A stretch of 64,000 bases of DNA from Dehalococcoidia bacterium (GCA_963665775.2 CAXXTF010000001.1:320001-384000), one strand, 5' to 3'. Counted from the stretch's first letter, positions 13,686 to 50,580 are shown. Numbers and translations are program-made. The notes: generated by a model from the sequence alone, not told the origin.

Positions 13686-15161
13686 CTAGGGTTTGCCGAC
13701 CGCCCCCGCCGCCTGCGACCCGCTAAAGATCACCGCCGTCCCCTGCTCCACCACATCGAACAGGGGCTGTGGATAGAGCCCCACCAGGAACACACCGGCC
13801 ACCAGAGTCGCCAGCACCCCGTACTCCAGCCAGGGCGTCGGAAACCGCGTCTCCTCCTCCGGCTTCCCCAGGTACATCTGCCTGACGATCGTCAGGTAGT
13901 AGTAGAGCGAGACGAAGCTCATGAGCACGGCTACCCCCGCCAGCCACAACAGATCCTCCTGAGCCGCAGCCTGAAAGAGGATGAACTTGGTGGCGAATCC
14001 GGCGAACAGGGGCATCCCAGCCAGAGAGAAGAGGGCCACGCTCAGCGATAGCGCCACGAAGGGGGCCCGCTCCGCCAGCCCCGCGTACTCCTCGATCTCC
14101 TCTTTGCCCGTCCAGTTGTAGAAGATTATCACGCAGACGAAGGCGGCCAGGTTCGTAATGACGTACCCCACCAGGTGCAGCACCAGAGCGCTTCCCGCCT
14201 CCGGCGAGAGGGCAGCGATCCCCACGAGCAGGAACCCCACCTGGCCGATGCTAGAGTAGGCCAGCAGCCGCTTGATGTTGTGCTGCTGAATCGCCACTAG
14301 ATTGCCCAGGATCATGGTGGCTGCCGCGAGGACGGCGATGAACAGGCGCCATTCGTCCAGAAGCGGCAGGAAAGCCTCCGCGAACAGCTTCAGGAAGAGG
14401 GCGAACCCTGCCGCCTTGGATATAGCCGCTACCAGCGCCGTAACCGGCAGGGGCGCTCCCTCATACGCATCTGGCGTCCACATGTGGAAGGGGACGGCCG
14501 CTACCTTGAACCCCAGCCCGGCGATTATCAGCGCCAGCCCCAGGAACAGCGCCATGTCGAAGCTGCTGGTGTCTCCCGTAAGCTGGGCGCCGATCTCGGC
14601 GAAGTGGGTGCTCCCGGTGACGCCGTAGATCAGGCCTATCCCGTACAGCAAGATGGCCGAGGAGAAAGCGCCCAGCAGCATGTACTTCAGGCCGCCCTCG
14701 TTTGAACGGTGGTCGAACTTAGCGAAGGAGACCAGAACGTAGAGGCTGAAGCTCAGCAGCTCCAGCGACACGTAGGCCGTCAGCAGCTCCCCGGACGCCG
14801 CCATCCCGTTGGCGCCCACGACGGCGAGGAGGATCAGCGCATAATACTCGCCCGCGTGGAGGAGCCGGTCCCTCACGTAGCGAGCGGAGGCTAGGATGGC
14901 GAAGAAGCCGATGAGCCCAAAGAAGACCCGGAACAGGGTGGTGTAGTTGTTAATCTGAATGAGGTTCGCGAAGTCGGTGTCGTCGTTGATCCAGATGAGG
15001 GACACGAGGGTGGCAGCCAGCGCCCCCGCAGCGGCCACGTAGCCCAGTTGATCCTTGCGCAGGCCGCCCCAGAACAGGTCCAGGAGCACCACCATGCCGG
15101 CCCATCCCACCAGGATGTACTCCGGCGCCAGGAGCGACCATTGCAGATTCAGATCGTCCAT
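13686..15161 (-). CDS. nuoN: NADH-quinone oxidoreductase subunit N
   Basis: FKVAAVPFHMWTPDAYEGAP, KRLLAYSSI. Confidence 0.95.
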   Translation of the reverse strand: MDDLNLQWSLLAPEYILVGWAGMVVLLDLFWGGLRKDQLGYVAAAGALAATLVSLIWINDDTDFANLIQINNYTTLFRVFFGLIGFFAILASARYVRDRLLHAGEYYALILLAVVGANGMAASGELLTAYVSLELLSFSLYVLVSFAKFDHRSNEGGLKYMLLGAFSSAILLYGIGLIYGVTGSTHFAEIGAQLTGDTSSFDMALFLGLALIIAGLGFKVAAVPFHMWTPDAYEGAPLPVTALVAAISKAAGFALFLKLFAEAFLPLLDEWRLFIAVLAAATMILGNLVAIQQHNIKRLLAYSSIGQVGFLLVGIAALSPEAGSALVLHLVGYVITNLAAFVCVIIFYNWTGKEEIEEYAGLAERAPFVALSLSVALFSLAGMPLFAGFATKFILFQAAAQEDLLWLAGVAVLMSFVSLYYYLTIVRQMYLGKPEEETRFPTPWLEYGVLATLVAGVFLVGLYPQPLFDVVEQGTAVIFSGSQAAGAVGKP

Positions 15162-16663
15162 TAGCCAATCCCCGGCAGGTTATTGACGGTCTCGCTGATG
15201 CGATCGATGAACGGCTTCGGCCACATCCCCATGAAGACGATGAAGAAGATGAGCAGGACGCTCGCGGACTGCTCGCGAAAGCGCATCTCCTTCAGGCTCG
15301 CCCAGCGCTCGTTGAAGGGGCCGAAGTAGGCGCTAGCCAGCATCCGCAGAATATAGGTGGCGGTGATAGCGGCAGCCAGGATGCCCAGAGCCCCCGCCCA
15401 GTAGTAGCCTGCCTGGAACGTGCCCACAAAGATGTGGATCTCAGCGATGAAGCCGGCCAGGCCCGGCAGGCCAAGGGACGAGAGCCCGGCTATCGTCCAG
15501 AAGGCAGTGTGCCGAGGCATCTTATTGGCCAGTCCCCCGAACGCGGTCATATCCCGCGTGTGGGTCTGGTCGTAGACGGCACCCACGTTGGCGAACATGA
15601 GGGCGGTCATGACCCCGTGGGCGAACATCTGGAGGACAGCCCCGGTGACTCCAATGCTATTCATGGAGGCCAGCCCCATCATGACGAATCCCATGTGGCT
15701 TACGCTGGAGTAGCCCACCATGTACTTGAGGTCTTTCTGGCCCAGAGCGGAGACGGCGCCGTAGAGGGCGCCGGTCACGCCCAGGGTCATGAGGACCGGC
15801 GACCAGAATTGGGCACCCTCAGGGAACAGACCTATCCCTACCCGGAGGATGCCGAACGCCCCCAGCTTCATAAGGACACCGGCGTGCAGCATGGAGACCG
15901 CCGTGGGGGCGGCCACGTGGCCGTCTGGCGACCAGGTGTGGAAGGGCCAGAGGCCGGCCAGGATCCCGAACCCGATCATGTAGAACGGGAAGAAGGTCTT
16001 CTGGAACGTCTCCCCGTAGGTCGCCTCGCCCAGCACCGGCAGGTCAAACGTCCCCTGCCCGGCCTCCGTGAAGGTGGCGAAGATGGCGATGAATATGAGT
16101 ACGCTGCCGGCCACCAGGTAGAGCACCAGCTTCATCGCGCCGTACTCCTTGGTTCGGACGAACGTACCAAAGTTGCTGCTGGCACCCCACACAGCGATGA
16201 GCAAGTACATGGGCAGAACCGCCACCTCGTAGAAGAAGAAGAGGAAGAAGAGGTCCTGAGAGACGAATACGCCGAAGACACCGGCTACCAGCGCGAACAG
16301 GAGGATGAAGTAGTCCTTGTTCCGGTAGTCGATGTTCCAGGATATGAAGACGCCGGCCAGGATGACGATGCCCGTGAGCAGCACCATCGGCGCCGCAATC
16401 CCGTCCACCGCCAGGTGCAGGGTGATCCCGTTCTCGCCCAAGAAAGCGATATTCTCCAGCCAGTCCAGCTGGAGGTCGAAGCGTAGCCCGCTGCCACCCT
16501 CGAACTCGTACCTGATGAAGACGAGCAGCGACATGAGGAACATGGCGGCGGCGGCGGCCAGAGCGGTATACCGCACGAGCTGCGAGTAGCGCGACGGGAT
16601 GAGCATGAACACCAGCGTCGTGCCGAGCGGCAGGGCGATCAGGGCAAAGAGAACCCACTCCAC
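15161..16663 (-). CDS. nuoM: NADH-quinone oxidoreductase subunit M
   Basis: WPFHTWSPDGHVAAPT, YSSVSHMG. Confidence 0.95.
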   Translation of the reverse strand: MEWVLFALIALPLGTTLVFMLIPSRYSQLVRYTALAAAAAMFLMSLLVFIRYEFEGGSGLRFDLQLDWLENIAFLGENGITLHLAVDGIAAPMVLLTGIVILAGVFISWNIDYRNKDYFILLFALVAGVFGVFVSQDLFFLFFFYEVAVLPMYLLIAVWGASSNFGTFVRTKEYGAMKLVLYLVAGSVLIFIAIFATFTEAGQGTFDLPVLGEATYGETFQKTFFPFYMIGFGILAGLWPFHTWSPDGHVAAPTAVSMLHAGVLMKLGAFGILRVGIGLFPEGAQFWSPVLMTLGVTGALYGAVSALGQKDLKYMVGYSSVSHMGFVMMGLASMNSIGVTGAVLQMFAHGVMTALMFANVGAVYDQTHTRDMTAFGGLANKMPRHTAFWTIAGLSSLGLPGLAGFIAEIHIFVGTFQAGYYWAGALGILAAAITATYILRMLASAYFGPFNERWASLKEMRFREQSASVLLIFFIVFMGMWPKPFIDRISETVNNLPGIG

Positions 16664-16665
16664 AG

Positions 16666-18564
16666 CTAGACGCTCACTACCAGGAACACAATAGAGATGA
16701 CGATGACGCCCAGGGAGATCGCCAGGGCGTAGTTGGGCAGCTTACCGGTCTCCAGAAACTTCATCCCGAAGCCGGCGAACACGCCCAGCCCGGCCGACCC
16801 GTCCACAGCGGTGTCGTTCACCACATTGCGGTCAAACCAGCCGATGACAGCGCCGCCCGCGAGGACGACATGATTGATGACCCACTGGTAGGCGTCATCC
16901 AGGTAATAGTTGTTCGCCAGAGTACGGTAGACGGGACGCAGCGACTGCGCCGCCCGCCGGGCCGGCGCTGCCTCGCCGGACCAGAAATACACCCCAGCGG
17001 CGATGCCCCCTATCGCGATCAGCGTGGAGAGGATCGCTACGTCCCAGGGGAAGTGGAAAGCCTCTGCCTCCTCAAGGAAGACAAACTCGCCGAAGCCGCC
17101 GGGGAAGCCCAGCGCCTCTCCCACGCTGCCGAAGGCCACGAATCCGCCCACCAGGGTCAGGGCCGCCAGCAGCAACAGCGGCACGGTCATCATCGGCTCC
17201 GCGTCGTGGGCGTGCTCCTGAGCGTGGTGATTCCGGGGACGGCCGGTGAACGTTCGCACGAACAGTCTGGTCATATACAGAGCGGTGATGAACACGCTGA
17301 GCATCATGAAAACGTAGACCACCCAGTTCTGGTTATCGCCGGAAACGTTGAGGATCTCGTCTTTGGCCCAGAATCCGGCCAGGGGAAAGATCCCGGCCAT
17401 GGATAGAGCTCCGATACCGAACACCACCGACGTCACCGGCATCTTAGAGGAGAGGCCACCCAGCTCGGTCAGATCCTGTCGCTCAGTAGCATGGATAATG
17501 GAGCCGGCGGAGAGGAAGAGGAGCGCCTTAAAGAAGGCGTGCGCGAACAGATAGAGCATGGCGGCGGTGACGGAGCCCGACCCCAGGGCCACCATCATCA
17601 GGCCAAGGCTATTGAGGGTAGAGTAGGCGATCACCCGTTTGATGTCGGTGGCCGTCAGGCCCATGGTGACCGACATCATTACGGTGGTGAGGCCGATGGC
17701 GGTCACCACGCTGAGGGCGACCGGATCGGCCAGCTCGAAGAGGGGAAGCATGCGGGCCACCAGATAGATCCCGGCCACCACCATGGTGGCGGCGTGGATC
17801 AGGGCGGAGACGGGCGTGGGGCCCTCCATGGCATCGGGAAGCCAGACGTGCAGAGGGAACTGTGCGGACTTCCCAACGGCGCCAGCGAAGAGCAACAGCA
17901 CGGCCAGGGTCAGGTACTCGGCGCTGTAGCCACCCCCCTCGGCAAACTCGAATATCTCCGATATGTCGAATGTGCCGGCCTCCCGCCAGAGGAGGATGAT
18001 GCCGATGAGCAGCCCCACATCGCCGATGCGGGTCGTGATGAACGCCTTCTTGGCCGCCTCAGCGGCGGAGCGGCGCTCATGCCAGAAGCCGATGAGTATG
18101 TAGGAGCCGAAGCCCACACCCTCCCAGGCCACGTACAGAAGGAGGAGGTTATCGGCCAGCACTAGGGTCAGCATGGCGGCGGCGAAGAAGGACATCATGG
18201 CGAAGTACCAGCCGTAGCGGGGATCGCCGCGCATGTATGCCACGGAGTAGACCTGCACCATCAGCGCCACGAAGCTGACGACGGCCAACATGACGATGGT
18301 CAGCTGGTCCACGTGGAAGCCGAGCTGGATGTTGAAGGCGTCGAGAGACACCCATTCCCAGGCACGCCCACCACCGGTGAAGTCGGGTTGGTCCAGATTG
18401 TCCAGGAGGTCTATCAGGACCGGGAAGAAGATGACGAAAGAGGCGGCGATGGCGCCGATGGCCAGCCAGTCGCCCCTGCGGGGCAGATACTTACCGAACA
18501 GAAGGAGAGCGACGAAGGCAGCCGCAGGAATCGCGGGTATCAGCCAGACCTCACCCATGCCCAC
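16666..18564 (-). CDS. nuoL: NADH-quinone oxidoreductase subunit L
   Basis: GKSAQFPLHVWLPDAMEGPTPVSALIHAATMV. Confidence 0.97.
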   Translation of the reverse strand: MGMGEVWLIPAIPAAAFVALLLFGKYLPRRGDWLAIGAIAASFVIFFPVLIDLLDNLDQPDFTGGGRAWEWVSLDAFNIQLGFHVDQLTIVMLAVVSFVALMVQVYSVAYMRGDPRYGWYFAMMSFFAAAMLTLVLADNLLLLYVAWEGVGFGSYILIGFWHERRSAAEAAKKAFITTRIGDVGLLIGIILLWREAGTFDISEIFEFAEGGGYSAEYLTLAVLLLFAGAVGKSAQFPLHVWLPDAMEGPTPVSALIHAATMVVAGIYLVARMLPLFELADPVALSVVTAIGLTTVMMSVTMGLTATDIKRVIAYSTLNSLGLMMVALGSGSVTAAMLYLFAHAFFKALLFLSAGSIIHATERQDLTELGGLSSKMPVTSVVFGIGALSMAGIFPLAGFWAKDEILNVSGDNQNWVVYVFMMLSVFITALYMTRLFVRTFTGRPRNHHAQEHAHDAEPMMTVPLLLLAALTLVGGFVAFGSVGEALGFPGGFGEFVFLEEAEAFHFPWDVAILSTLIAIGGIAAGVYFWSGEAAPARRAAQSLRPVYRTLANNYYLDDAYQWVINHVVLAGGAVIGWFDRNVVNDTAVDGSAGLGVFAGFGMKFLETGKLPNYALAISLGVIVISIVFLVVSV

Positions 18565-18577
18565 TGCTACGTCACCC

Positions 18578-18886
18578 CTACCATTTCAGAATGTCAACCT
18601 CGTCAACGTTGGCCGTGGCCCTGTTTCTAAAGAGGCGGAGAACGATGGCCAGGGCCAGCCCCACCTCCGCGGCAGCGATGGTGATGACGAAGATAGCGAA
18701 GATGAGGCCCCGGAACTGATCGGGGTAGAGAAAGACGGCGAAGGCGATGAAGTTGATGCTGACCGCCTGCAGCATCAGCTCCACCGACATGATGATGAGG
18801 ATGGCGCTGCGTCGGGCCAGAACCCCGTACATCCCCAGCGAGAAGAGGATGGCGCTGAGCACCAGGAAGTTCTCGATGGGGATCAT
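18578..18886 (-). CDS. nuoK: NADH-quinone oxidoreductase subunit K
   Basis: MSVELML, IAAAEVGLALA. Confidence 0.95.
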   Translation of the reverse strand: MIPIENFLVLSAILFSLGMYGVLARRSAILIIMSVELMLQAVSINFIAFAVFLYPDQFRGLIFAIFVITIAAAEVGLALAIVLRLFRNRATANVDEVDILKW

Positions 18887-19380
18887 TCCCCCTCCTCGCT
18901 CCGAGCCAGGATGATGCCCCCTATCAGGGCCACCAGGAGAACCAGGGAAGCTATCTCAAAAGGGATGGCCCAGGTGCGGAATAGCGCCTCCCCCAGCTCA
19001 TTGAGGGTCACGACGGTGATCTTCTCCGTCTCACCCGGCCAATCGGTAGCCACGGCGGCCAGGACGGAGATACCCAGGAAAGCGCCGGCGGCCAGGGCGG
19101 CGAAGGGCCGTTGGGCCCCGTCTGAGGGCTGGGGCAGATCCCGGACGCGCGTGAGCATCATAGCGAAGAGGACGAGAATGGTGACAGCGCCCCCGTAAAT
19201 GAGCACCTGGACGATGGCCAGGAACTCCGCCGAGAGAAGGATGAACACGGCAGCCACAGACAACAAGGCCAGGATAAGAAAGAGGGCGGCGTGAACGACG
19301 CTCCGGGCCAACACTACCCCTAAAGCGCCGGCGACCGTTACCACCGCTACGACGTAAAATATGCCTTCTTCGTAGGTCAT
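18883..19380 (-). CDS. nuoJ: NADH-quinone oxidoreductase subunit J
   Basis: QVLIYGGAVTILVLFAMML, PFEIASL. Confidence 0.95.
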   Translation of the reverse strand: MTYEEGIFYVVAVVTVAGALGVVLARSVVHAALFLILALLSVAAVFILLSAEFLAIVQVLIYGGAVTILVLFAMMLTRVRDLPQPSDGAQRPFAALAAGAFLGISVLAAVATDWPGETEKITVVTLNELGEALFRTWAIPFEIASLVLLVALIGGIILARSEEGE

Positions 19381-19416
19381 ACGGTCAGCGGACTCTCGAC
19401 CACTGCAACGTCGTTG

Positions 19417-19971
19417 TTACCCCTCGCCACCTTCCCGTTTGGCCTCCTCCGCCTCCGCCTTCCCAGTCTGCTCCTTTGGCGCCCCGCCCGAGTGCGCTAT
19501 CCCCATCGGCTCTCGGAAGTGGTCCTTTACGCGGCCGCTCTTGACGTCGTCCAGGAGGGCCGGCAGGTCCATCACCAGCTCCTGCCGATCATACCGAGAC
19601 AGCTCGACACCGGTCCATGAGTTGTTCATTACGATAGCGTCGAAGTTGCACACCTCAACGCAGATGTCGCAGCGCATGCAGCGGGCGTAATCGATGTAGA
19701 ACCGGTCGACGATCTTACGCCGCTTGGACGTCCCCTCCGCGTACTTGGGGTTGTCCTTCATCGTGATGGTCATACAGTCCGACGGACAGTAGCGGGCGCA
19801 GACCTGGCAACCAGTGCAGAACGGCTCATCCACCTCGAAGTCATAGAGGAGAATGGGAAGCCCCCGCGAGCGGTGTGGCAGCTTCTTCTTCTCCGTCGGA
19901 TACTCCACGGTGACCGGCTTCCGCAGCGCGGACCGCATCGTAACGGCGATCGACTTCAACATGCCCAGCAT
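19417..19971 (-). CDS. nuoI: NADH-quinone oxidoreductase subunit I
   Basis: Two 4Fe-4S motifs CTGCQVCARYCP and CMRCDICVEVC. Confidence 0.93.
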   Translation of the reverse strand: MLGMLKSIAVTMRSALRKPVTVEYPTEKKKLPHRSRGLPILLYDFEVDEPFCTGCQVCARYCPSDCMTITMKDNPKYAEGTSKRRKIVDRFYIDYARCMRCDICVEVCNFDAIVMNNSWTGVELSRYDRQELVMDLPALLDDVKSGRVKDHFREPMGIAHSGGAPKEQTGKAEAEEAKREGGEG

Positions 19972-21102
19972 CTACACTGCCCCCCTTGCACGACGCAGGC
20001 GCGGCGAGGGCACGCCCGCCCGGTGAGCGCCACGGTAGGTGATGTAAACAGCAGCCAGGGCGGCGATCCCAGAGAGGACGCCAAGGGTCCAGTCAGGCCA
20101 ACCGTAAACGAGCACCAGCCCATTGATTATGATTTGCAGGAAGGCTAAGGGCAACAACACCTGCCAGCAGAAGGCCATCAACTGGTCGATGCGCAGCCTG
20201 GGCATGCTGACCCGCATCCACATGAAGAACAGGATAAATCCCGATGCCTTCACGACTATCAAGAATACCTGAAGCGCGGGCCCCACTTCGTTACCGCCGG
20301 GCCAGTTCCAACCACCCAGGAAGATCAGGGAGCCCAGAACCGATATGAGCACCAGATTCAGGTACTCCGCCATCTGGAACAGGGACCAGCGGATGCCCGA
20401 GTACTCTACGAAGGGGCCACCCACCACTTCCGACTCGGCGACGGGGATGTCGAAGGGCTGGCGGTAGAGTTCCGCCAGGCCGGCGATGACGAAGATGAAG
20501 AAGGCCAGGGGTTGCCAGGCGATGTACGGAACCTTGTCCTGCCCATCAACCAGCTCCACCAGGTTCAGGCTCTGTCCCACCATGGCCACGGCCAAGACGG
20601 ACAGGACGAACGGAATCGCGTAGCTGATGAGCTGGGCCGCCGCCCGCACGCCCCCCAGGAGGGCGTACTTGTTGTCCGAGCCCCAGCCAGCCATGAGGAA
20701 GCCGACGATGGAGACCCCGGAGACAGCCAAAATAAAGAACAGCCCCAGCTCCAGGTTGCGCACGAACAGATCGGCGGTGAAGGGGAGGGTGACGAACGCC
20801 AGAAACACCGGCACCACGACCACGAAGGGCGCCAGCTCGAAGGTCCAGCGGTCCGCTGTCTGGGGACGAAGGTCCTCCTTGGTGAGGAGCTTCACCGTGT
20901 CGGCCACACCCTGAAGGGTTCCGTAGGGCCCGACCCGCATAGGCCCGAGCCGCATCTGGAAACGCCCAATGACCTTGCGCTCCAGATAGGTGAGAACGAT
21001 CACCGCCAAGGGGATGAGAGCCGCTATTATGCCCATACGGACCAGGGCGTCCACCCAGGCGTTATCGTTTTGGAAAATGAAGCGGAGCGAATCGGCGATC
21101 AA
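19972..21102 (-). CDS. nuoH: NADH-quinone oxidoreductase subunit H
   Basis: ERKVIGRFQMRLGPMRVGPYG, PFDIPVAESE, PRLRIDQL. Confidence 0.95.
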   Translation of the reverse strand: MIADSLRFIFQNDNAWVDALVRMGIIAALIPLAVIVLTYLERKVIGRFQMRLGPMRVGPYGTLQGVADTVKLLTKEDLRPQTADRWTFELAPFVVVVPVFLAFVTLPFTADLFVRNLELGLFFILAVSGVSIVGFLMAGWGSDNKYALLGGVRAAAQLISYAIPFVLSVLAVAMVGQSLNLVELVDGQDKVPYIAWQPLAFFIFVIAGLAELYRQPFDIPVAESEVVGGPFVEYSGIRWSLFQMAEYLNLVLISVLGSLIFLGGWNWPGGNEVGPALQVFLIVVKASGFILFFMWMRVSMPRLRIDQLMAFCWQVLLPLAFLQIIINGLVLVYGWPDWTLGVLSGIAALAAVYITYRGAHRAGVPSPRLRRARGAV

Positions 21103-30868: not shown

Positions 30869-32370
30869 CAACGATCGACCAGCAAGGGCAGGGATCGCCG
30901 CCGGGGCCCGACATCGGCGCCCGCCTGACCTTCGACCTGAGCCGGCCGGGGCGAAAGGGGGTTCTCCTGCCGCCCTTGGACGTGCCTCCGGCCCCGCTGC
31001 CGCCCTCTCGCTTCCTGCGCTCGGAGCTGAACCTGCCGGAGATGGCCCAGAACGACGTGATCCGCTACTTCCTGGGGCTCAGCCGCCTCAACTACAGCAT
31101 CGACACCGGCTTCTACCCCCTGGGCTCCTGCACCATGAAGTACAACCCTAAGGTAAACGAGGACGTGGCGGGCTTGCCCGGCTTCCTCCTGGCCCACCCC
31201 TTGCAGCCGCCGGAGACGGTCCAGGGCGCCCTGGCTGTCCTGCATGAGCTACAGGGCGCGCTGGCGGAGATCACCGGCATGGACGCCGTGAGTCTGGCCC
31301 CGGCGGCCGGCGCTCAGGGCGAGCTGTGCGGCATCCTGATGATCAGAGCCTACCTGGCCGACCAGAGGCGGGGCGACCGCCGGACGGTGCTCGTGCCGGA
31401 CTCCGCCCACGGCACGAACCCGGCCACCGCCGCCATGGGTGGCTTCCGGGTGGTCACCATCCCCTCGGACGCAAAGGGAAACATGGACCTCGACTCTCTG
31501 GAGCGAGCCCTGGACGACGGCGTGGCGGCGATGATGCTAACCCTGCCCTCCACCCTCGGCCTGTTCGACCCGAACATCAGGCGTATCGCGGAGACGCTGC
31601 ACCGGCGCGGGGCGCTGCTCTACGGCGACGGCGCTAATCAGAACGCCTTCCTGGGCCGCGCCCGCTTCGGCGACATGGGGTTCGACGTGGTACACCTCAA
31701 CCTGCACAAGACGTTCTCCACCCCCCACGGAGGGGGCGGCCCCGGCGCCGGCCCCGTCTGCGCCACGACCGAACTCGCTCCCTACCTGCCAGCGCCCATC
31801 GCCGAAAGAGCGGCAGAGTCGTACCGCCTGTCCACTCCGGAGCGCAGCATCGGCAAGACGCTAGCCTTTCATGGCAACTTCGGCGTGCTGGTGCGGGCCC
31901 TGACCTACATCCGCTCGCTCGGTGCCGAGGGGCTGCGCGCCGCCAGCGAGAACGCCGTCGTCAACGCCAACTACGTGCAGGCCCGGCTGCGCGGCGCCTA
32001 CCACCTCCCCTACGACCGCCGCTGCCTGCACGAGGCGGTGCTCTCCGGCAGCAAGCAGCGGGCTAAGGAGGTCAAGACCCTGGATATCGCCAAACGGCTC
32101 ATCGACTACGGCTTTCACCCCCCCACGATATACTTCCCCCTCATTGTGGACGAGGCGCTGATGATCGAGCCCACGGAGACGGAGGGGAAAGAGGCGCTGG
32201 ACGCCTTCTGCGAGGCGATGCTGGCGATAGCGAGAGAGTCAGAGGAGGAGCCGGAGCTGGTGAGGGGCGCGCCCCATACGGCGCCCCTGCGCCGCCTGGA
32301 CGAGGCGACGGCGGCCCGGCGGCCGGTCCTCAGATGGCAGCCTACAGAGGAGCGCGACGATGACCGGTGA
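30865..32370 (+). CDS. gcvPB: Glycine dehydrogenase subunit 2
   Basis: PLGSCTMKYNPK, HLNLHKTFSTPHGGGGPG. Confidence 0.96.
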   Translation: MTTIDQQGQGSPPGPDIGARLTFDLSRPGRKGVLLPPLDVPPAPLPPSRFLRSELNLPEMAQNDVIRYFLGLSRLNYSIDTGFYPLGSCTMKYNPKVNEDVAGLPGFLLAHPLQPPETVQGALAVLHELQGALAEITGMDAVSLAPAAGAQGELCGILMIRAYLADQRRGDRRTVLVPDSAHGTNPATAAMGGFRVVTIPSDAKGNMDLDSLERALDDGVAAMMLTLPSTLGLFDPNIRRIAETLHRRGALLYGDGANQNAFLGRARFGDMGFDVVHLNLHKTFSTPHGGGGPGAGPVCATTELAPYLPAPIAERAAESYRLSTPERSIGKTLAFHGNFGVLVRALTYIRSLGAEGLRAASENAVVNANYVQARLRGAYHLPYDRRCLHEAVLSGSKQRAKEVKTLDIAKRLIDYGFHPPTIYFPLIVDEALMIEPTETEGKEALDAFCEAMLAIARESEEEPELVRGAPHTAPLRRLDEATAARRPVLRWQPTEERDDDR

Positions 32371-33547
32371 CTTCAGCGAGCTGAACGTCCCCTCGCGGCT
32401 GCTGCTGGGGCCTGGCCCCAGCAACGTCCACCCCCGCGTCTACCGGGCGATGATGACACCGGTCATCGGCTACCTGGACCCCCAATTCCTGCAACTCCTG
32501 GACGACACCCAGCGGCCCCTGCGCAGCCTCTTCCGCACCGAGAGCGATCTGACCATCGCCATCTCCGGCACGGGTAGCGCGGGGATGGAGGCGTCCATAT
32601 ACAACGTCTTAGAGCCTGGAGACAGAGCCGTGGTCTGCGTTAACGGCTTCTTCGGCACGCGGATGGCGGAGATGGCCCGCCGCTGCGGGGCCGAGGTGAC
32701 CACGGTGGAGGCCGACTGGGGCCGCATCATCGAGCCGGATCAGGTAAAGGCAGCGCTACGGGCCAACCCCGGCACCAAGGCCGTGACGATCGTCCACGGC
32801 GAGACCAGCACCGGCGTCCTCCAGCCCCTGGAGGAGATCTCGCGCATCGTCCACGAACACGGCGCCCTCCTGGTGGTGGACACCGTGACCACCCTGTCCG
32901 GATGCGAGCTCCACGTCGACGAGTGGGGGATCGACGTCTGCTTCAGCGGCACCCAGAAGTGCCTGTCGGCGCCGCCGGGGTTATCGCCGATCACCTTCAG
33001 CCCCCAGGCGATGGCAGTCCTCGCCGCCCGCAAGGAGCCGGTGCGTAGCTGGTACCTGGACATCTCCCTGCTGCATCGATACTGGGGCGGCGGCGAGACT
33101 CGAGTCTACCACCACACACCGCCGATGACGATGCTGTACGCCCTCCGAGAGGCCCTACGCATCGCCCTGGAAGAGGGGTTGGAGACGCGCATCGCCCGTC
33201 ATCGGCGCCACGCGGAGGCGCTGGCGGCCGGTCTGGAGGCGATGGGCCTGCGTCTGCACGCCCAGGAGGGCTACCGGCTGCCCCCGCTGACCACCGTGCG
33301 CATCCCGGAGGGGGTGGACGACCTGGCCCTGCGCCGCGGCCTGCTTCAGGAACACAACATCGAGGTCGGCGGCGGCATCGGGGCCATGCAGGGGCAGGTG
33401 CTGCGCATCGGGCTCATGGGGTTCGGCTCCAGCGAGGCGAACCTGCTGGCGCTGCTCTACGCCCTGGAGACAGGACTGCTCAAGCAGGGCTTCCGGCTGG
33501 AGCCGGGGGCCGGGGTGAGCGCCGCCGCCAGCGCCCTCAACGCCTAA
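32360..33547 (+). CDS. Alanine--glyoxylate / serine--pyruvate aminotransferase (class V PLP)
   Basis: LLGPGPS, HGETSTG, SGTQKCLSAPPG, YHHT. Confidence 0.92.
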   Translation: MTGDFSELNVPSRLLLGPGPSNVHPRVYRAMMTPVIGYLDPQFLQLLDDTQRPLRSLFRTESDLTIAISGTGSAGMEASIYNVLEPGDRAVVCVNGFFGTRMAEMARRCGAEVTTVEADWGRIIEPDQVKAALRANPGTKAVTIVHGETSTGVLQPLEEISRIVHEHGALLVVDTVTTLSGCELHVDEWGIDVCFSGTQKCLSAPPGLSPITFSPQAMAVLAARKEPVRSWYLDISLLHRYWGGGETRVYHHTPPMTMLYALREALRIALEEGLETRIARHRRHAEALAAGLEAMGLRLHAQEGYRLPPLTTVRIPEGVDDLALRRGLLQEHNIEVGGGIGAMQGQVLRIGLMGFGSSEANLLALLYALETGLLKQGFRLEPGAGVSAAASALNA

Positions 33548-33657
33548 CGTCAGCTAGGCTCGCGCCCGGCCAGCCTAACACCCTCCACCGCTGAACTCAC
33601 AAGTACGCCTTTCAGCACTCAGAAACCGTAAGCGACGACATCCCCTCCTTCCATTTA

Positions 33658-33677
33658 TAGAACATACATCCTACTAT
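33658..33677 (+). promoter_or_regulatory. Degenerate LexA (GAAC-N4-GTTC type) box overlapping a -10 element
   Basis: TAGAACATACATCCTA is 13/16 to the palindrome TAGAACATATGTTCTA and overlaps TACTAT. Confidence 0.4.
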
Positions 33678-33721
33678 TGCCCTTGCCAACGTTCCCTGAA
33701 CCAGAAGGAGGTACCAGCCCC

Positions 33722-34608
33722 ATGGCCCTCACCCTCGCCGAATCCGCCAAGCTCTCCAACGATACGCTCCTCACCGGCGTCATCGAGACCATCGTCAAGG
33801 ACTCCCCCGTCCTCCAGCGCCTGCCCTTCATCGAGATCGTGGGCAACGGCCTCACCTACAACCGGGAGGCCACAGCCCCCTCCGCCGCCTTCTTCGACGT
33901 GGGCGACAGCTGGACCGAGTCCACACCGACGTTCACTCAGCAGACCGTCACCCTGAAGATCATGGGCGGCGATGCCGACATCGACAACTTCATCCTAGCC
34001 ACCCGCTCCAACCTCCAGGACATGGAGACGGCAATCGTCCAGCTAAAGGCGAAAGCCGTCCGCGACCTGTTCGAGGACACCTTCATCACCGGCGACGCCA
34101 CCGCCGACCCCAAGACCTTCGACGGCCTGGACCAGCTCGTCGACGCCAGCCAAACGCTCTCAATGGGCGTCGCCGCGGCTCCCTCACCCTGGACAAGCTG
34201 GACAAGCTAATCGACACCGTCCTGGGAGGCAAGCCGGACCTGCTCCTCATGAGCCGGCGCTCCCGCCGCATCATCAACAAGCTGGCCCGCACCTCCGGCT
34301 CCTTCCTGGAAGCCGACCGCGACGAGTTCGGCCAGATGCTCCAGTTCTACGACGGCATCCCCATCGGCGTCTCCGACTACATCTCCGATACCCAGACCGT
34401 CGGCACAAGCACCGATTGCTCCACCATCTACGCCTTCCAGACCGGCGAGGGCGCCCTGTTGGGACTGACCTCCCCCGGCGGCCTCCAGGTGGAGCGCGTG
34501 GGTAGTCTGGAGACCAAGGACGCCACCCGCACCCGCATCAAGTGGTACTCCACACTGGCCCTCTTCAACACCGTGAAGCTGGCCTCGCTCACAGGCGTCC
34601 GCCCGTAG
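33722..34608 (+). pseudogene. Phage major capsid protein (HK97-like), split by a 1-nt frameshift near 34175
   Basis: AAGGAGG RBS; MALTLAESAKLSND..GVIETI..LPFIEIVGNGLTYNRE..GGDADID..FDGL, continuing in another frame as GSLTLDKLDKLID..LLLMSRR..YDGIPI..STIYA..RTRIKWY..LASLTGV; about 295 aa when repaired. Confidence 0.8.
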
Positions 34609-34625
34609 TCTTCCCCTCCGGCCAA

Positions 34626-34664
34626 GCTGGCGGGGCCCGGCCTGACCTCCCGGACCCCGCCAGC
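34626..34664 (+). other. Strong stem-loop after the capsid gene (no U-tract)
   Basis: GCTGGCGGGGcCCGG-loop-CCGGaCCCCGCCAGC. Confidence 0.6.
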
Positions 34665-34696
34665 GCCCCTTCACCCTGACTCAGGAGACCAACACC

Positions 34697-35038
34697 GTGA
34701 CCACCATCAAGAAGGCGATCATCAAGACCTACGACCCCGCTGCACACGAGGCCGCCATCCAGATAGCGGGCTCCCTCGCCGTCTGGCTGGAGGCCGTTGC
34801 CGTCGCCGCCGACATCCCGGCCGGCGAAGTCCTGGCCGGCCGCGAGTGCAGCGTCCTCTTTTTCACTGACGACAACCCAGACGACGCCGTCGTCTTCACC
34901 ATCCACGGCGTCGTACCCATCCCCACAGGCCCTCTCGATATCGAGGTACTAGAAGGCGGCGTCACCGTCGGCACTACCACCTGCGTAGGCACGATCCAAG
35001 TCTACGAAGACGGAATCCTAGTAGGGAGCACACCGTGA
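34697..35038 (+). CDS. Small phage-like structural protein (possible OB-fold baseplate/spike protein)
   Basis: AGGAG RBS; beta-rich KAIIKTYDPAAHEAAIQI..GRECSVLF..DAVVFTI pattern; position in the cluster. Confidence 0.55.
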   Translation: MTTIKKAIIKTYDPAAHEAAIQIAGSLAVWLEAVAVAADIPAGEVLAGRECSVLFFTDDNPDDAVVFTIHGVVPIPTGPLDIEVLEGGVTVGTTTCVGTIQVYEDGILVGSTP

Positions 35039-35874
35039 GCACCTTCAAAATCGACTTCGGCTCAGGTTTCGACGTCACCGAGTCCCCCGCCGACGAGTTC
35101 AACATTGTTCTCGACCTGTCAGAGCTCACCGCCGCGGGCGAGCTCGGGGGCACCCTCGACGCCCCGACAGTAGACGCTACCCACTCCGGCTCTGCGCACC
35201 ACCTGGCAAGCGACCCTGGTCCGCCTAACGGTGCCGCAGGTGGCGAACTGGGCGGCACCTACCCCAGCCCAACCGTCGACGCCACCCACGCCGGCTCTAC
35301 CCACCACGCCGAAGGCCATACCATCCCCAGCCACTCCGATACGACAGCCACCGGTGCCGAGCTAGAGGAGCTGACCGACGGCAGCCAAACCGCTCTCCAC
35401 TCCCACGCTGGCGGGGGCGGCCCCACGAAAGTTCACAAAGCGGCCGATGAAAGCGTCACCTCTTCAACCACCCTCCAAAATGACGACGACTTCTCCTTCG
35501 CCGTCTCCGCCAACACCGACTACATCTTTGAAATACACGCTGCAATCACCTGCGACTTCCGGAATGGCTCCATCAAAGTGGCTATTACTGTTCCCTCCGG
35601 AGCCACCATGCTACTCATGGCTCAACTCCTGCAGAACAAGCAAAGCGAGGTCGACAACGCATCGCGTGCAGGCTGGACAACCATCAGCGGAACCGCCATC
35701 TCCCTTCGCACCAGCATCGTCAACGCCGGCTCGGGTAACGGCCTGCTCAGCATTTACGGCCGCGTAAGCGTCGGCGGCACCGCCGGAACCGTGCAACTGC
35801 AGTGGGCCCAAGAAATCAGCGACACAGACCCTACAACTCTAAAGGCTAATTCGTGGATGCTCGTGTTCTCCTAA
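35035..35874 (+). CDS. Phage fibre/decoration-like protein
   Basis: GTGA overlap; 2x GELGGTxxxPTVDATHxGSxHH repeats, His motifs, C-terminal beta-rich domain (DESVTSSTTLQNDDDF..GTVQLQWAQ). Confidence 0.65.
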   Translation: MSTFKIDFGSGFDVTESPADEFNIVLDLSELTAAGELGGTLDAPTVDATHSGSAHHLASDPGPPNGAAGGELGGTYPSPTVDATHAGSTHHAEGHTIPSHSDTTATGAELEELTDGSQTALHSHAGGGGPTKVHKAADESVTSSTTLQNDDDFSFAVSANTDYIFEIHAAITCDFRNGSIKVAITVPSGATMLLMAQLLQNKQSEVDNASRAGWTTISGTAISLRTSIVNAGSGNGLLSIYGRVSVGGTAGTVQLQWAQEISDTDPTTLKANSWMLVFS

Positions 35875-36036
35875 TCAACCTACCTCCATCAATCCAGAGC
35901 AGGGCCCTACGACGACACCATCATCGTCGGCGGCACAGCCGGAACCGTACAGATGCGATGGGCCCAGAAGGTCGCCCACGCCAGCGATGCCAAAATCCTC
36001 AAAGGCTCCTACCTCATAGGCTGGAAGTTGTCCTAA
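35875..36036 (+). pseudogene. Orphan alternative C-terminal tip of the fibre-like gene, in frame after its stop
   Basis: ..IIVGGTAGTVQMRWAQKVAHASDAKILKGSYLIGWKLS* vs gene end VSVGGTAGTVQLQWAQEISDTDPTTLKANSWMLVFS*. Confidence 0.75.
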
Positions 36037-36145
36037 GCCCCACCCTCACACCGAGGACCGGCCTGTTATCGGCATCGGCCAGCGTGCTGGCGCAGTCCGC
36101 AGCGTATGACATCAGCAACCCTTCGCCCAGATAGGAGGACAGAAG

Positions 36146-36781
36146 ATGAACTTGAGTGATATGCGGGGCCGGCTACGCCAAGACCTGCATGACGAAGACG
36201 CTACCAACGAGCGCTGGACGGACGCCGAGCTGGATCGCCACATCGAGCGCTCCGTCCGCGAGTTCAGTCTCGCCGTCCCCCTGGAGACTAAGTCCACCCT
36301 CATCACCACTGCCGACAGCCGCGACCTGTCCATCTCCGGCCTCACGGAGCTTGTTTCCATCGCGGCGGTGGAGTATCCGGTGGACCAGTACCCACCGGCC
36401 TACGTGCGATTCTCCGTCTGGGAGTCCACCCTGACCCTGCTGGTCGACTCGGAGCCAGCAGCCTCCGAGAACGTCAACGTCTACTACACGAAGCTGCACA
36501 CCATCGACATCAGCTCATCGACGGCGCCGCCGCGATTCGAGGGCGTCATCGCCACCGGTGCCGCAGGCTATGCCGCCCTGGAGTGGGCCTCCTTCGCCAC
36601 CAACCGGGTGAACGTGGGTGGGCAGGACGTGTGGCAGGAGTATCTGACCTGGGGAGAGGAGAGGCTGGCCGATTTCCAGCGGGAGCTGGCCCGCCACGGC
36701 AGGCGCAACGCCCTGCGCGCCCGCCGCCTGTATCCGCCCGCAACACCGTCTGTCGATCAGTCAACCGTAGTGGGGCCGTAG
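36146..36781 (+). CDS. Phage head-tail adaptor-like protein
   Basis: AGGAGG RBS; N-terminal MNLSDMRGRLRQDLHD..RWTDAELDRHIERSV helical pattern typical of adaptors. Confidence 0.6.
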   Translation: MNLSDMRGRLRQDLHDEDATNERWTDAELDRHIERSVREFSLAVPLETKSTLITTADSRDLSISGLTELVSIAAVEYPVDQYPPAYVRFSVWESTLTLLVDSEPAASENVNVYYTKLHTIDISSSTAPPRFEGVIATGAAGYAALEWASFATNRVNVGGQDVWQEYLTWGEERLADFQRELARHGRRNALRARRLYPPATPSVDQSTVVGP

Positions 36782-36786
36782 CCCTC

Positions 36787-38745
36787 ATGCGCACCCTTGC
36801 TTCGCCGCTCCTGGACGCCCAAAAGAGTGACTCCGCCGTTCCCTACCTCAAGGTGGTGATCTCCGACCGCATCGGCGGCGTGCGGCGGCTGGACTTCACC
36901 CGACTGTACACAGGCAGCGAGCCGGACGGCTACCACGCCGCCGCTATGCCCGGCGACGGCTCCCTGCTGCGGGCCCGCGTCTCCTCCGGGCGGCTGTACT
37001 ACCAGCGCGTCGCCACCCCCGGCGCAAGCAGCGACTTCTCCACCTGGACGGACCTCAGCGCCGCCGCCAGTGCCGATGTCGCCCTCTGCGCCGACGGATC
37101 GCGCGCTCTTCTGTTCTACGTCGACAGCGACGGGCTGACCCTGAAGGTACGGGAAAGCACCGATAACGGGATCACCCTGGGCTCGGCGGTGACCGTGGCC
37201 ACCGCCTCCGACACCGTCGGCTGGCTGGCGGCGGACGTCAAGTCCAGCGGCGACACCCTCCTGCTGTACTCGGTGGGCGCCACGGTCTTCTCCGTAAAGC
37301 GCAGCGGCGGCAGCTGGGGGTCGGCCACAGCCTGGAGCAACAGCGTTGCCTCAGTGGCCGGGTTGGCCTGCTTCCACCAGGGCGATTTCAACGCCGTGGT
37401 GACGGGCACCGACAGCTCGGGCGACGCCTTCGTATGGACATCCATCTTCGGCGACGGCTTCTCCCAGGCCCCCAACACCTGGTCGTCGCTGCGGGAGGTC
37501 ACCCGTGCCAGCAGCGGCTCCGGCGTCAGCCTCCAGGCCCCCTTTCTGGCCCAACCGGACACCTACCGGCTCACCTTCGTAGAGAAGTATACGGGGAGCC
37601 TCTCGTACAGCCGGCCCTACCACAGCTACTCGCCCGCCACGGCCGATTTCGCGACGAACCTGTGGCGAGAGCCCGTCCCCTTCAATCTGACCTCCGATTT
37701 CGGCCTGGCCCTGGCCTTCAGCAGCGGCGCCGCCTGGTTAAGCACACCGGCCGGGGTCTGGACGGCCTCGCTTTCCTTCCCTTCCCTGGACGTGACGACC
37801 GACGTTCTGGAGGCTACGACCCGGGTCCGGCCGTTCGAGGGTCGACTGCGGTTGGTGCTGCGGAACGATGATGGTCGCTACTCGTCCCTCCCGCCCGCCG
37901 TGAAGCTGGCCGCGGAGGTGCGGGTCAGCCCCGGCTACATTACCGCCACCGGCTCCCAAGCATCCGATGGCCCGGCCTACTGGATCGAGGGGATCGAGTG
38001 GGCCTCCGGAGCCGGAAAAGGGACGCTGGCGCTGGAGACGAGAAACGCCTGGAGCCTGCTGGACGGCTGGCGCGCCCGCCGCCAGTATAGCTGGGCCGCC
38101 GGCCAGAAGAACGTCTTCGGCATCCTGCAGTTCCTATTCGCCCGCGCTGGGCTGGAGTTCTCGTCCGCCGGCAGCAGCGCCGCCGCCGGCAACCTCTACC
38201 CCACCTTCACGGTGCACCCCGGCGACTCCGGCCTGACGGCCGTGCAGCGGCTCCTGACCATGCTCCCGGACGTCGTACTCGTTCGGGGCGAGTTCGGCTA
38301 CCTGGTGGAGCCGACCGCCAGCCAGGCGTCCGACTATGTCTACGGCACCGATCACTCGCTGCTGACCGGACGCTACGCCGACCTCCTGCCCGGGGCCAAC
38401 CGGGCGCAGGTCTTCGGCGCTGGCGTGTTCGCCGAGGGGTTCGACTGGCCAGGAGTGGAGTCGGTCTACGATCTGCTGCGACAGGTTCACGACGCCAACC
38501 TGACCACGACGGGCCAGGCCCAGGACCGGGCCGACGCCTTGCTCCGCCACGAGCTGTTAGCGGCCAGGGGCGGCGAGATCGTGGTACCGGTAAACTGCGG
38601 CCAGGAGCTGTACGACGTCGTGGAGGTGACAGACGTCGGCGCGGGCCTAGCGGCAGCGAAGCGGCGGGTGCTGGGGCTGTCGCTGCGCTACTCCACAGGG
38701 GAGCGGCCTCTGTACGAACAGCGCATCACCCTGGGCGGGGTGTAG
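36787..38745 (+). CDS. Phage tail / baseplate hub-like protein (652 aa)
   Basis: ATG 36787 five nt after the previous stop; beta-rich N half; C-terminal EIVVPVNCGQELYDVVEVTD..RRVLGL..YEQRITL resembles tail hub ends. Confidence 0.6.
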   Translation: MRTLASPLLDAQKSDSAVPYLKVVISDRIGGVRRLDFTRLYTGSEPDGYHAAAMPGDGSLLRARVSSGRLYYQRVATPGASSDFSTWTDLSAAASADVALCADGSRALLFYVDSDGLTLKVRESTDNGITLGSAVTVATASDTVGWLAADVKSSGDTLLLYSVGATVFSVKRSGGSWGSATAWSNSVASVAGLACFHQGDFNAVVTGTDSSGDAFVWTSIFGDGFSQAPNTWSSLREVTRASSGSGVSLQAPFLAQPDTYRLTFVEKYTGSLSYSRPYHSYSPATADFATNLWREPVPFNLTSDFGLALAFSSGAAWLSTPAGVWTASLSFPSLDVTTDVLEATTRVRPFEGRLRLVLRNDDGRYSSLPPAVKLAAEVRVSPGYITATGSQASDGPAYWIEGIEWASGAGKGTLALETRNAWSLLDGWRARRQYSWAAGQKNVFGILQFLFARAGLEFSSAGSSAAAGNLYPTFTVHPGDSGLTAVQRLLTMLPDVVLVRGEFGYLVEPTASQASDYVYGTDHSLLTGRYADLLPGANRAQVFGAGVFAEGFDWPGVESVYDLLRQVHDANLTTTGQAQDRADALLRHELLAARGGEIVVPVNCGQELYDVVEVTDVGAGLAAAKRRVLGLSLRYSTGERPLYEQRITLGGV

Positions 38746-38864: not shown

Positions 38865-39887
38865 ATGCCCGAACGGATCATCTCCGGCGAGATCCAGGAC
38901 GCGGACCTGACCCTGGACACCACCCTCCGCCCCAGGCGGATCGATGAGTTCATCGGCCAGGAGAAGATAAAGGATAACCTGGCCATCGCCATCGCCGCCG
39001 CCCAGCAGCGGCAGGAGCCCCTGGACCATATCATGCTCTACGGCCCGCCGGGCCTGGGCAAGACCACCCTGGGCCACATCATCGCCCACGAGATGTCCGT
39101 CTCGATCCGTGTCACCTCCGGCCCGGCGATCGAGCGGGCGGGGGACCTGGCCGCCATCCTCACCAACCTCCAGGAGAACGACGTCCTGTTCATCGACGAG
39201 GTACACCGACTGCCGCGGGCGGCGGAGGAGGTGCTCTACCCAGCCCTGGAAGACTTCGCCCTGGACATCGTCCTCGGGCGGGGGCCCGGAGCCCGCAGCG
39301 TGCGCCTCTCGGTGCCCCGTTTCACGCTTGTGGGCGCCACTACCCGTTACGCCATGCTCAGCCCACCCCTGCGGGACCGCTTCGGCGCCGTTTACCGGCT
39401 GGACTTCTACGACCAGGAAGCGATCGCCGCCATCATCCGTCGCAACGCCACCATCTTACAGGTGCCCCTAGAAGCGGAGGGCGCCGAAGAGATCGCCCGG
39501 CGCTCCCGGGGCACGCCGCGGGTCGCCAACCGACTGCTACGGCGGGTGCGGGACTACGCCCAGGTGCGGGCCGACGGCGTCATCACATCGGAGGTGGCCA
39601 AGCAGGCCCTGGCCCGGCTGGACATAGACGACTTGGGGCTCGACGAGGTGGATCACAAGGTCCTGCGCACGATTATCGAGAAGTTTGACGGCGGCCCTGT
39701 GGGGATCGAGACGATCGCCGCTTCCATCTCCGAAGAGGCGGATACGATCATGGACGTATACGAGCCTTACCTGATGCAGGTGGGGTTCCTTCAGCGCACC
39801 GCCCGCGGCCGGATGGCGACACGCCACGCCTACGCCCACCTGGGCATCGAGGCGCCGCAGTCTCTCCAGGGAGGCCTGTGGGAGTGA
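38865..39887 (+). CDS. ruvB: Holliday junction DNA helicase RuvB
   Basis: [40 protein letters not shown]. Confidence 0.97.
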
Positions 39888-50314: not shown

Positions 50315-50390
50315 TGGAGCCCACGACCGGATTCGAACCGGTGACCCCGTTCTTACCAAGAACGTGCTCTACCTGCTGAGCTACGTGGGC
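50315..50390 (-). tRNA. tRNA-Thr(GGT)
   Basis: Cloverleaf with anticodon GGT, GGTTCGAATCC and CCA end. Confidence 0.95.
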
Positions 50391-50404
50391 TTTTAAGCAT
50401 CAGC

Positions 50405-50492
50405 TGGTGGCGGGGGCAGGATTCGAACCTGCGTAGCCCGTCAGGGCGCCGGGTTTACAGCCCGGTGGTATTAACCACTCACCCACCCCGCC
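50405..50492 (-). tRNA. tRNA-Tyr(GTA)
   Basis: Anticodon GTA, long variable arm, CCA end. Confidence 0.95.
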
Positions 50493-50505
50493 TAATTCCA
50501 GATTC

Positions 50506-50580
50506 TGGAGCCGAAGGGGGGAGTCGAACCCCCAACCTAGCGATTACAAATCGCTTGCGCTACCGTTGCGCCACTTCGGC
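50506..50580 (-). tRNA. tRNA-Thr(TGT)
   Basis: Anticodon TGT, GGTTCGACTCC, CCA end. Confidence 0.95.

Follow-up and report, generated by a model that had tools for sequence, protein, structure and literature searches.

Among the closest described systems to the one reported here are the RcGTA-type gene transfer agents of Alphaproteobacteria and the PBSX-like defective prophages, or bacteriocins, of Bacillus. PBSX packages host DNA and has a contractile tail along with known lysis and regulatory genes. Phage SU10 (Kuravirus), a lytic podophage, has a nozzle and a needle. Here we describe a cluster of phage-like genes at positions 33677-38745 of a 64-kb window (the whole stretch of 64,000 nucleotides analysed, G000:C1:320001-384000) from a Dehalococcoidia bacterium, whose genome, G000, counts 2.35 Mb in two contigs. 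According to family scans, in which several small open reading frames (ORFs) match no family, the set to which the cluster belongs comprises genes for phage head, tail and packaging, with no modules for replication, integration or lysogeny. We propose, with a probability of about 0.7, that the window genes are one half of an ancient, vertically inherited, Dehalococcoidia-wide set for a phage-derived particle, and that this set is decaying in the present species.

The cluster consists of five to six closely spaced ORFs, all on the plus strand (33677-34210, 34249-34608, 34697-35038, 35035-35874, 36146-36781 and 36583/36787-38745). Its parts are:

33722-34210, plus strand: 5' part of an HK97-type major capsid protein (MCP) gene; phrog_212, E = 1.3e-40, profile positions 4-153 of 301
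34174-34608, plus strand: 3' part of the MCP gene in the -1 frame, residues ~152-295; phrog_212, E = 2.2e-19, positions 174-294
34697-35038, plus strand: spike- or tip-like protein of 113 amino acids, a conserved domain of 70 amino acids with an extension of 43 (family FIB/c1)
35035-35874, plus strand: fibre-like protein of 279 amino acids; phrog_24062 (function unknown), E = 3.2e-10, residues 130-274
35912-35990, plus strand: non-coding remnant of a fibre-gene 3' end, inside the gap of 270 nucleotides at 35875-36145
36146-36781, plus strand: head-to-tail adaptor of 211 amino acids, intact; PF24175 SU10_adaptor, E = 2.3e-07, 31.9 bits against a cut-off of 27
36787-38745, plus strand: tail hub of 652 amino acids from the ATG at 36787, intact; assigned by predicted fold

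Relatives of these genes occur in much of the class. Of 301 class genomes, 176 match the MCP profile (144 of the 241 of high quality, 109 of 181 genera), nearly always in one open frame of ~295 amino acids and with E values of 1e-110 to 1e-188; some families, among them those with 18, 8 and 7 genomes, are without any match. The TerL (large terminase subunit) profile matches 214 of the 301 genomes and is empty or nearly so in these MCP-free families; both class tallies include one unpublished genome, G255. In family f1, that of the source genome, MCP is present in 4 of 8 genomes of the class sample and TerL in 7 of 8. Within the order, the hub is found in 33 of 41 genomes (17 of 19 of high quality), at 41-72% identity and mostly in intact frames, and the portal in 38 of 41 (19 of 19). 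A relative is encoded in 478 stretches of public species genomes; of the 80 that were listed, the majority have Dehalococcoidia, Chloroflexota or Tepidiformales in their titles, and a few have other groups there.

Some matches lie outside the class or outside a one-copy pattern. Other classes in the phylum sample (~165 of its 201 genomes) gave 12 genomes with one MCP match each, weaker than those in the class (E = 1e-85 to 1e-119). An origin before the class, or a transfer of the element from one class to another, may lie behind them. Three public contigs bear titles of Acidobacteriota, Aminicenantes and Hyphomicrobiales: the cluster is present in L070 and L071, with up to 91-97% identity to proteins of Dehalococcoidia family f6, and L099 has an MCP at 75% identity. 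They are most likely binning errors rather than transfers. In genus g43 (e.g. G057, G127, G144, G160), four to five full-length TerL-like copies accompany one MCP match, and there the terminase-like gene may also be part of another, multi-copy element.

The gene order is conserved too. The arrangement c10-c9-TerL-c7-portal...scaffold-MCP-(c5)-...-adaptor-hub-spike recurs in families f1, f2, f5, f6 and beyond, and among the 80 listed public loci it extends beyond the order. In f2 and f6 the genes are contiguous: TerL, a small ORF, portal, one to three genes, scaffold, MCP, c5, in some cases fibre and c15, adaptor, hub and the 70-amino-acid protein, with ruvB a few kb downstream in f6. In f1 the set falls into halves that are 5-10 kb apart, on separate contigs or, in G000, 206 kb apart. 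Host enzymes stand between the halves: a luciferase-like monooxygenase, a polysaccharide deacetylase and a phosphotriesterase, located between portal and scaffold, and a BNR/dockerin protein. ruvB is in the same locus for 11 of the 19 loci with a full-length hub, a HIT gene stands on the TerL side in at least nine genomes, and both flanks recur across families. The complete 1.7-Mb genome G123 has a compact, intact set, c7-portal-scaffold-MCP-adaptor-hub-spike.

In the window, the left neighbour of the cluster is a class-V aminotransferase gene (32360-33547), itself downstream of gcvT, gcvH, gcvPA and gcvPB, and the right neighbour is ruvB (38865-39887). The core genes around it comprise nuoL/M/N-type genes, valS, the gcv genes, ruvB and ABC exporters; the G+C content is 0.61-0.68 in the cluster against ~0.64 in the window. 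No terminase or portal gene is present in the 64 kb. Both were found, by searching with the relatives' proteins, on the same contig ~206 kb from the MCP gene, in a second locus at G000:C1:560217-565748 (minus strand). It reads: HIT-family gene; c39, c10, c9; TerL; c7; portal; c20; scaffold stub; cytochrome b genes. The parts located individually are:

G000:C1:560702-564009, minus strand: TerL and portal, by match to the relatives' proteins
G000:C1:564013-564349, minus strand: c9, a coiled coil with a C-terminal hydrophobic helix
G000:C1:560493-560705, minus strand: c20, a small membrane protein with two hydrophobic stretches

TerL has 487 amino acids, and 77% of its length aligns at 31% identity with a terminase-like protein from a Bacillus phage (E = 4e-36); the motifs of TerL resemble what we take to be the Walker A, Walker B and nuclease acidic motifs. 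c7 (153 amino acids) contains a helix-turn-helix domain. No family was found for c9, c10, c39 or c20, and c10 is also without a relative in the PDB. Judging by their sequences, c9 and c20 may be release or lysis factors, a holin-like role being an idea.

These results bear on several claims of the initial annotation, which had been made from the window only. It had listed five co-oriented phage-like genes, and these are real and closely spaced, except that its single capsid gene is frameshifted into two ORFs. It had placed them between the gcv/aminotransferase genes and ruvB, where our coordinates put them as well. It had seen no integrase, att site, tRNA target, terminase or portal in the window, as do the family scans and the tRNA and repeat searches, and its guess that the packaging genes lie elsewhere is borne out by the second locus. 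The link to Dehalococcoidia that it mentioned fits the titles of the listed public contigs.

The structural genes of the set evolve much like the host gene ruvB. In within-genus pairs (synonymous divergence, dS, of 0.12-0.48), the ratio of nonsynonymous to synonymous divergence (dN/dS) is 0.125-0.21 for MCP, 0.12-0.24 for the scaffold, 0.09-0.22 for c5, 0.10-0.18 for the adaptor, 0.27-0.28 for the hub and 0.12 for the portal. The structural genes thus lie at 0.09-0.28 against 0.12-0.18 for ruvB, a range of purifying selection, and dS of MCP, adaptor and hub is similar to that of ruvB in the same pairs. Trees were computed from loci where hub and ruvB both matched at ≥85% coverage, which dropped 12 of 26 candidate loci. 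For the 14 genomes left, the hub and ruvB trees have 7 of 11 splits in common (random relabelling: mean 0.23, maximum 4, n = 5000). Their patristic distances correlate with r = 0.79, a value that 0 of 2000 Mantel permutations reach, and their clades follow the family codes. The linkage to ruvB aside, the conserved flanks and the agreeing trees indicate a set that keeps its place in the chromosome and descends vertically through a large clade.

Orthologues, synteny, tree congruence and dN/dS below 1 all agree with domestication. The main idea of the initial annotation, a domesticated phage-derived particle system with a putative gene-transfer-agent-like function, holds at the level of the lineage, where the set is conserved, syntenic, selected and congruent with ruvB. 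It does not hold for an intact system in G000.

The clearest lesion of G000 is in the MCP gene. An AGGAGG motif precedes its ATG at 33722, and the 5' ORF corresponds to residues 1 to ~150 of orthologues of 295 amino acids, with 75-85% identity to relatives (tblastn), before it runs out of frame to the TAA at 34208-34210. The two ORFs match separate stretches of phrog_212, which identifies them as pieces of a single capsid gene disrupted by a -1 frame shift. None of the window ORFs gives a full-length, one-frame match to the HK97-type MCP families (phrog_212; PF05065 Phage_capsid), while the orthologue in L014 matches phrog_212 at positions 4-293 (E = 3.7e-68) and scores 37.1 bits with PF05065 (cut-off 24.2). 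The break is a deletion of one nucleotide at ~34176-34181, inside a motif, N151-G152-G153, whose three residues are invariant in 13 of 13 aligned orthologues. In the DNA alignment, the window sequence GGCGTC-GCCGCGGCTCC is one base short of GGCGTCAACGGCGGCTCC, the form present in four relatives from the same family.

The frameshift is real and fixed, and no assembly error, because contigs of four different studies carry it and differ from one another by single-nucleotide polymorphisms (SNPs). In Logan, contigs of four runs, one from each study, cover the break site with no gaps: those of X1 and X4 run from 33600 to 36800 and differ in 0 and 1 letters, respectively, that of X7 spans 33600-36548 with 8 SNPs and that of X8 33834-35147 with 4 SNPs. 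X1 may be the source sample; the other runs are independent assemblies of slightly different strains.

Further genes are damaged. The portal has an in-frame TGA, near G000:C1:561464, at a conserved tryptophan (EA*TESDF versus EVWTEQEF in relatives). A TGA in G017 was considered as a shared case and rejected, as it is that gene's own stop. Only ~33 N-terminal residues are left of the scaffold, after which the sequence diverges, with the breakpoint at about G000:C1:560217-560411, and the profiles of c5, c11 and c15 match nothing in the six-frame translation of G000. The adaptor, hub, TerL, c7, c9, c10 and c20 are still open, and all host genes compared in both loci are intact. G000 thus falls short of a complete open set in MCP, portal, scaffold, c5 and c11/c15.

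In this species, a rearrangement would have moved the TerL-portal half ~206 kb away and cut the scaffold gene. Together with the fixed capsid deletion, the premature portal stop and the accessory genes not found, it would leave canonical particles impossible to make, because MCP, portal, scaffold and accessory genes are all damaged or not found. The locus would then be in early decay, with adaptor, hub and TerL still open.

Other f1 genomes are decaying as well (G019, G021, G013 and G007). In G019 (locus L212) and G007, TerL, c7, c9, c10 and c39 are intact and the portal is an N-terminal piece. In G019, MCP was not found and a C-terminal remnant is left of the hub; in G007, MCP is a weak remnant and the hub was not found. 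In these two genomes the packaging module outlasts the capsid. In G013 (locus L011), which has the most similar hub (71%), a stretch of 1.3 kb that lacks MCP, fibre and adaptor separates the aminotransferase from the hub gene; the portal is in pieces, and the aminotransferase is also broken in that assembly, so sequencing errors are possible. In the complete 1.5-Mb genome G085 (L209, G085:C1:372600-377300), a frame of 512 amino acids fuses portal residues ~205-303 to hub residues ~248-652: an internal deletion removed scaffold, MCP and adaptor, and TerL, c7, c10 and the 70-amino-acid gene remain.

The tail genes of the window differ in how firmly they can be assigned. The adaptor passes the gathering threshold of SU10_adaptor over profile positions 1-184 of 194, is 52-74% identical to its relatives and matches its own family profile at E = 1.2e-109. 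In the strains of X7 and X8, 45 nucleotides of this gene, bordered by a short repeat, are missing in frame at 36548-36594, so that a conserved structural gene is polymorphic here.

By sequence the hub matches no family (Phage_GPD, for example): searches of Pfam and PHROGs with the proteins of 720 and 655 amino acids, reaching to E = 0.1 or 0.05, gave nothing. Its AlphaFold model (pLDDT 77.8, pTM 0.69) shows an N-terminal β-propeller (~residues 1-290), sialidase- or lectin-like, and a C-terminal half with a predicted fold of the gp27/Mu gp44/P2 gpD/VgrG type. Foldseek aligns the model over ~350 columns to PDB structures of extracellular contractile injection systems (eCIS), Photorhabdus virulence cassettes (PVC), Mu gp44, the MuSo2 43-kDa tail protein and VgrG (E = 1.7e-11 to 3e-10), and in BFVD to models named 'Phage protein D' and '43 kDa tail protein'. 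Across both databases the probability is 1.00 at E values of 1e-11 to 1e-14; TM-scores are low (0.3 for the query) because the match spans half of the protein. The 652-residue protein is predicted, in other words, to have the fold that its initial label of 'tail hub-like' implied.

The 113-residue protein is a candidate spike. It matches no Pfam or PHROG family. Weak leads point to a spike: a PDB profile match (4jiw_D, E = 0.046) and Atlas clusters near the domain, which carry PF18946 Apex and PF04717 Phage_base_V (scores 0.83-0.86, leads only). Its 70-residue domain is a free protein after the hub in families f2, f5 and f6, and the N-terminus of longer fibre-like proteins (190-389 amino acids) in f1 relatives.

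The next gene overlaps its stop (GTGA) and encodes the fibre-like protein, with histidine-rich repeats, a variable C-terminal domain and no Pfam family. Relatives have unrelated C-terminal parts at the fibre position, and fibre-gene dN/dS is 0.40-0.49. As some f1 relatives have one longer ORF here, a second frameshift between the 113- and 279-residue ORFs was considered; it was rejected because of the stop/start overlap, the unrelated C-termini and the free occurrence of the 70-residue domain. Behind the fibre gene, a direct repeat of 55 nucleotides (35756-35810 and 35912-35966, 78% identity) reaches into the gap at 35875-36145, and the remnant there, translated in one frame, resembles the C-terminus of the 279-residue protein. 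Where G000 has this remnant, f1 relatives hold the small gene c11; the remnant is probably the leftover of a fibre-cassette exchange.

From the intact relatives we infer the following particle. Its core set would be c10, (c9), TerL, c7, portal, scaffold, MCP, adaptor, propeller-hub and the 70-residue spike-like protein, with a jelly-roll protein (c5), the fibre and a small helical protein (c11/c15) as accessories. The c5 model (pLDDT 86.8) gives weak jelly-roll matches of carbohydrate-binding module (CBM), C1q or TNF type, the best at E = 8e-4, and a capsid decoration protein is a guess from that model. Intact relatives would build a DNA-filled head of HK97 type with a minimal tail, in which the portal leads to the adaptor, a trimeric gp27-like hub and a spike, with fibres. 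Such a product of chromosomal genes without a replication or integration module would count among domesticated particles, such as gene transfer agents or defective phages.

With TerL and portal kept alongside the capsid, DNA packaging probably belongs to its function, which leaves a role like that of gene transfer agents or of PBSX as our best, though tentative, guess. Going further, we tentatively suggest a class-old, independently domesticated, gene-transfer-agent-like particle in Dehalococcoidia and a few other Chloroflexota, with about ten core genes among host genes, repeatedly lost or eroded, and with a tail of adaptor, propeller-bearing gp27-type hub and small spike.

The set could also be domesticated for something other than gene transfer: a killing or adhesion particle (PBSX-type, bacteriocin) or another host task. 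The hub fold is one that contractile injection systems and tailocins use, the hub bears a sialidase- or lectin-like propeller, the fibres diversify, and the small membrane proteins c9 and c20 could serve release. We nevertheless consider this unlikely. TerL and portal are kept with the capsid across the class, which speaks for DNA packaging, and no sheath, tube or toxin domain accompanies them; moreover, PBSX-type particles package DNA too, so that this explanation overlaps with our best one.

Could the system still work in G000, with the MCP break bypassed by programmed frameshifting and the portal TGA read through? The genes still open there are also conserved, MCP dN/dS against relatives is low, and the frameshift is fixed in strains of four studies, as a tolerated or recoded site could be. 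Programmed frameshifting in MCP is nonetheless rejected, as there is neither a slippery heptamer nor a homopolymer at the break. The 13 aligned orthologues and the 176 class matches read as one frame, and the lost base falls in an invariant motif. With the scaffold truncated, c5 and c11 not found and 15 adaptor codons missing in some strains, a working system in this genome is very unlikely.

A still-mobile family of temperate phages or satellites, inserting near ruvB and co-diverging with Dehalococcoidia hosts, would account for part of the record. Active phages show purifying selection too, the fibres vary like receptor-binding proteins, with raised dN/dS and swapped C-termini, TerL is multi-copy in one genus, and IMG/VR labels 322 related stretches viral. 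The best 80 of these matches, however, are fragments of 2-11 kb, except for one 27-kb contig. General family scans of the window, of G000 and of the relatives' proteins turned up no integrase, repressor or replication family. The repeat search of the window found only short chance repeats and no att-like ones flanking the cluster, and the only tRNAs of the window are at 50315-50580, none within 11 kb of the cluster. The hallmarks of an integrated prophage (integrase, att or tRNA target, lysogeny and replication genes) are thus missing. As the cluster is also split differently by genus, with host metabolic genes between its parts, and as its dS is close to that of the neighbouring ruvB, we regard a mobile family as highly improbable.

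Hardly credible is an ordinary, decayed remnant of a recently integrated prophage with no host function. G000 does have several lesions, missing genes and a fibre-gene remnant, and the f1 genomes G019, G021 and G013 hold only fragments. Set against this are the conservation of intact, single-copy frames across the order and much of the class, dN/dS like that of ruvB, conserved host flanks, interspersed host genes and agreeing trees; the nearest MCP of a cultured phage is 40% identical, and none of 290 matches reaches 60%. The decayed prophage that the initial annotation had offered as an alternative is right only in that the G000 copy is decaying. Its other alternative, a capsid nanocompartment, is not supported: an encapsulin shell has the HK97 fold and a cargo protein but no portal, terminase or tail, and the relatives keep portal, TerL, adaptor and hub with MCP. 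The facts at the level of the lineage are not easily explained by a recent prophage or by a mobile phage, and fit a domesticated particle system.

Several observations weigh against an ancient set now decaying in G000. MCP dN/dS of G000 against relatives shows no rise (0.11-0.25), so either the gene was inactivated recently or it could still be readable in some way. TerL is kept where MCP was not found (e.g. G019, G085) and is multi-copy in one genus, hence it may have a life outside the particle system; its family matches are weak (Terminase_6C, E = 5.5e-4; PHROG terminase, E = 4e-4), and a profile search of PDB sequences gave no match. ruvB is physically linked to the cluster and not fully independent of it, so that only the family codes add outside support to the trees, and both purifying selection and tree agreement are also expected of a co-speciating phage. 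The portal TGA, the scaffold break and the absence of accessory genes are read from the assembly alone. No tail tube, sheath, tape measure or recognised lysis gene was found in the clusters, which makes the minimal tail a conjecture. Finally, the system is known here from its genes alone.

Elsewhere in the window, an AT skew of 0.18-0.30 at 13686-21102 (minus strand) coincides with three Proton_antipo_M genes of nuoL/M/N type. It is a composition effect of membrane proteins, nothing unusual.

A Dehalococcoidia-wide domesticated particle system is apparently undescribed so far: a full-text literature search, at the level of its search results, gave no such system for Dehalococcoidia or Chloroflexota. 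A preprint on IME1 elements of Dehalococcoides is unrelated; it deals with filamentous-virus-like elements without tailed-phage genes. If our reading is true, this would be the first system of gene-transfer-agent type in the phylum, its tail having an architecture so far undescribed in particles of this kind, and a new, independent case of phage domestication beside the alphaproteobacterial agents. Dehalococcoidia, which are mostly uncultured and have small genomes, abound in the subsurface, in the sea and in soil, and the particles would offer them an unnoticed route of DNA exchange or cell-to-cell interaction. The lineages with partial sets form a natural series on the order in which parts are lost and on TerL outlasting the capsid.

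The known systems each resemble the set in some of its parts. Capsid-forming phage-inducible chromosomal islands (cf-PICI) likewise have their own packaging and capsid genes and no long tail. They are mobile and patchy, with integrase and replication genes, whereas the set here is without those, has a fixed position and brings its own hub and spike. With phage SU10 it shares the adaptor type, as its PF24175 match shows, and the orthologous MCP matches SU10_MCP weakly (E = 1.1e-4, below the cut-off); the gene after the adaptor, in contrast, is a gp27-type hub and not a nozzle. The hub has the C-terminal fold of Mu gp44, P2 gpD, T4 gp27, VgrG and the eCIS/PVC spike-hub, and a small spike-like protein follows it. 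Unlike those baseplate hubs, it is fused to an N-terminal β-propeller and has no sheath, tube or baseplate wedge genes nearby.

PBSX-like particles are, like this one, chromosomally fixed, non-replicating remnants kept by the host, at the level of a genus there and of a class here.

For RcGTA, the comparison draws in part on one abstract (PMC10883770), and on our side on gene content. RcGTA is siphovirus-like, with a tail tube and a tape measure; neither was found here, where the tail would consist of adaptor, gp27-like hub and spike, and the G000 copy, unlike RcGTA, is broken. In the following points the two systems agree: both have structural and packaging genes without replication or integration genes, and both are chromosomally fixed, inherited vertically over a large clade, held under purifying selection, spread over several loci and lost in some lineages.

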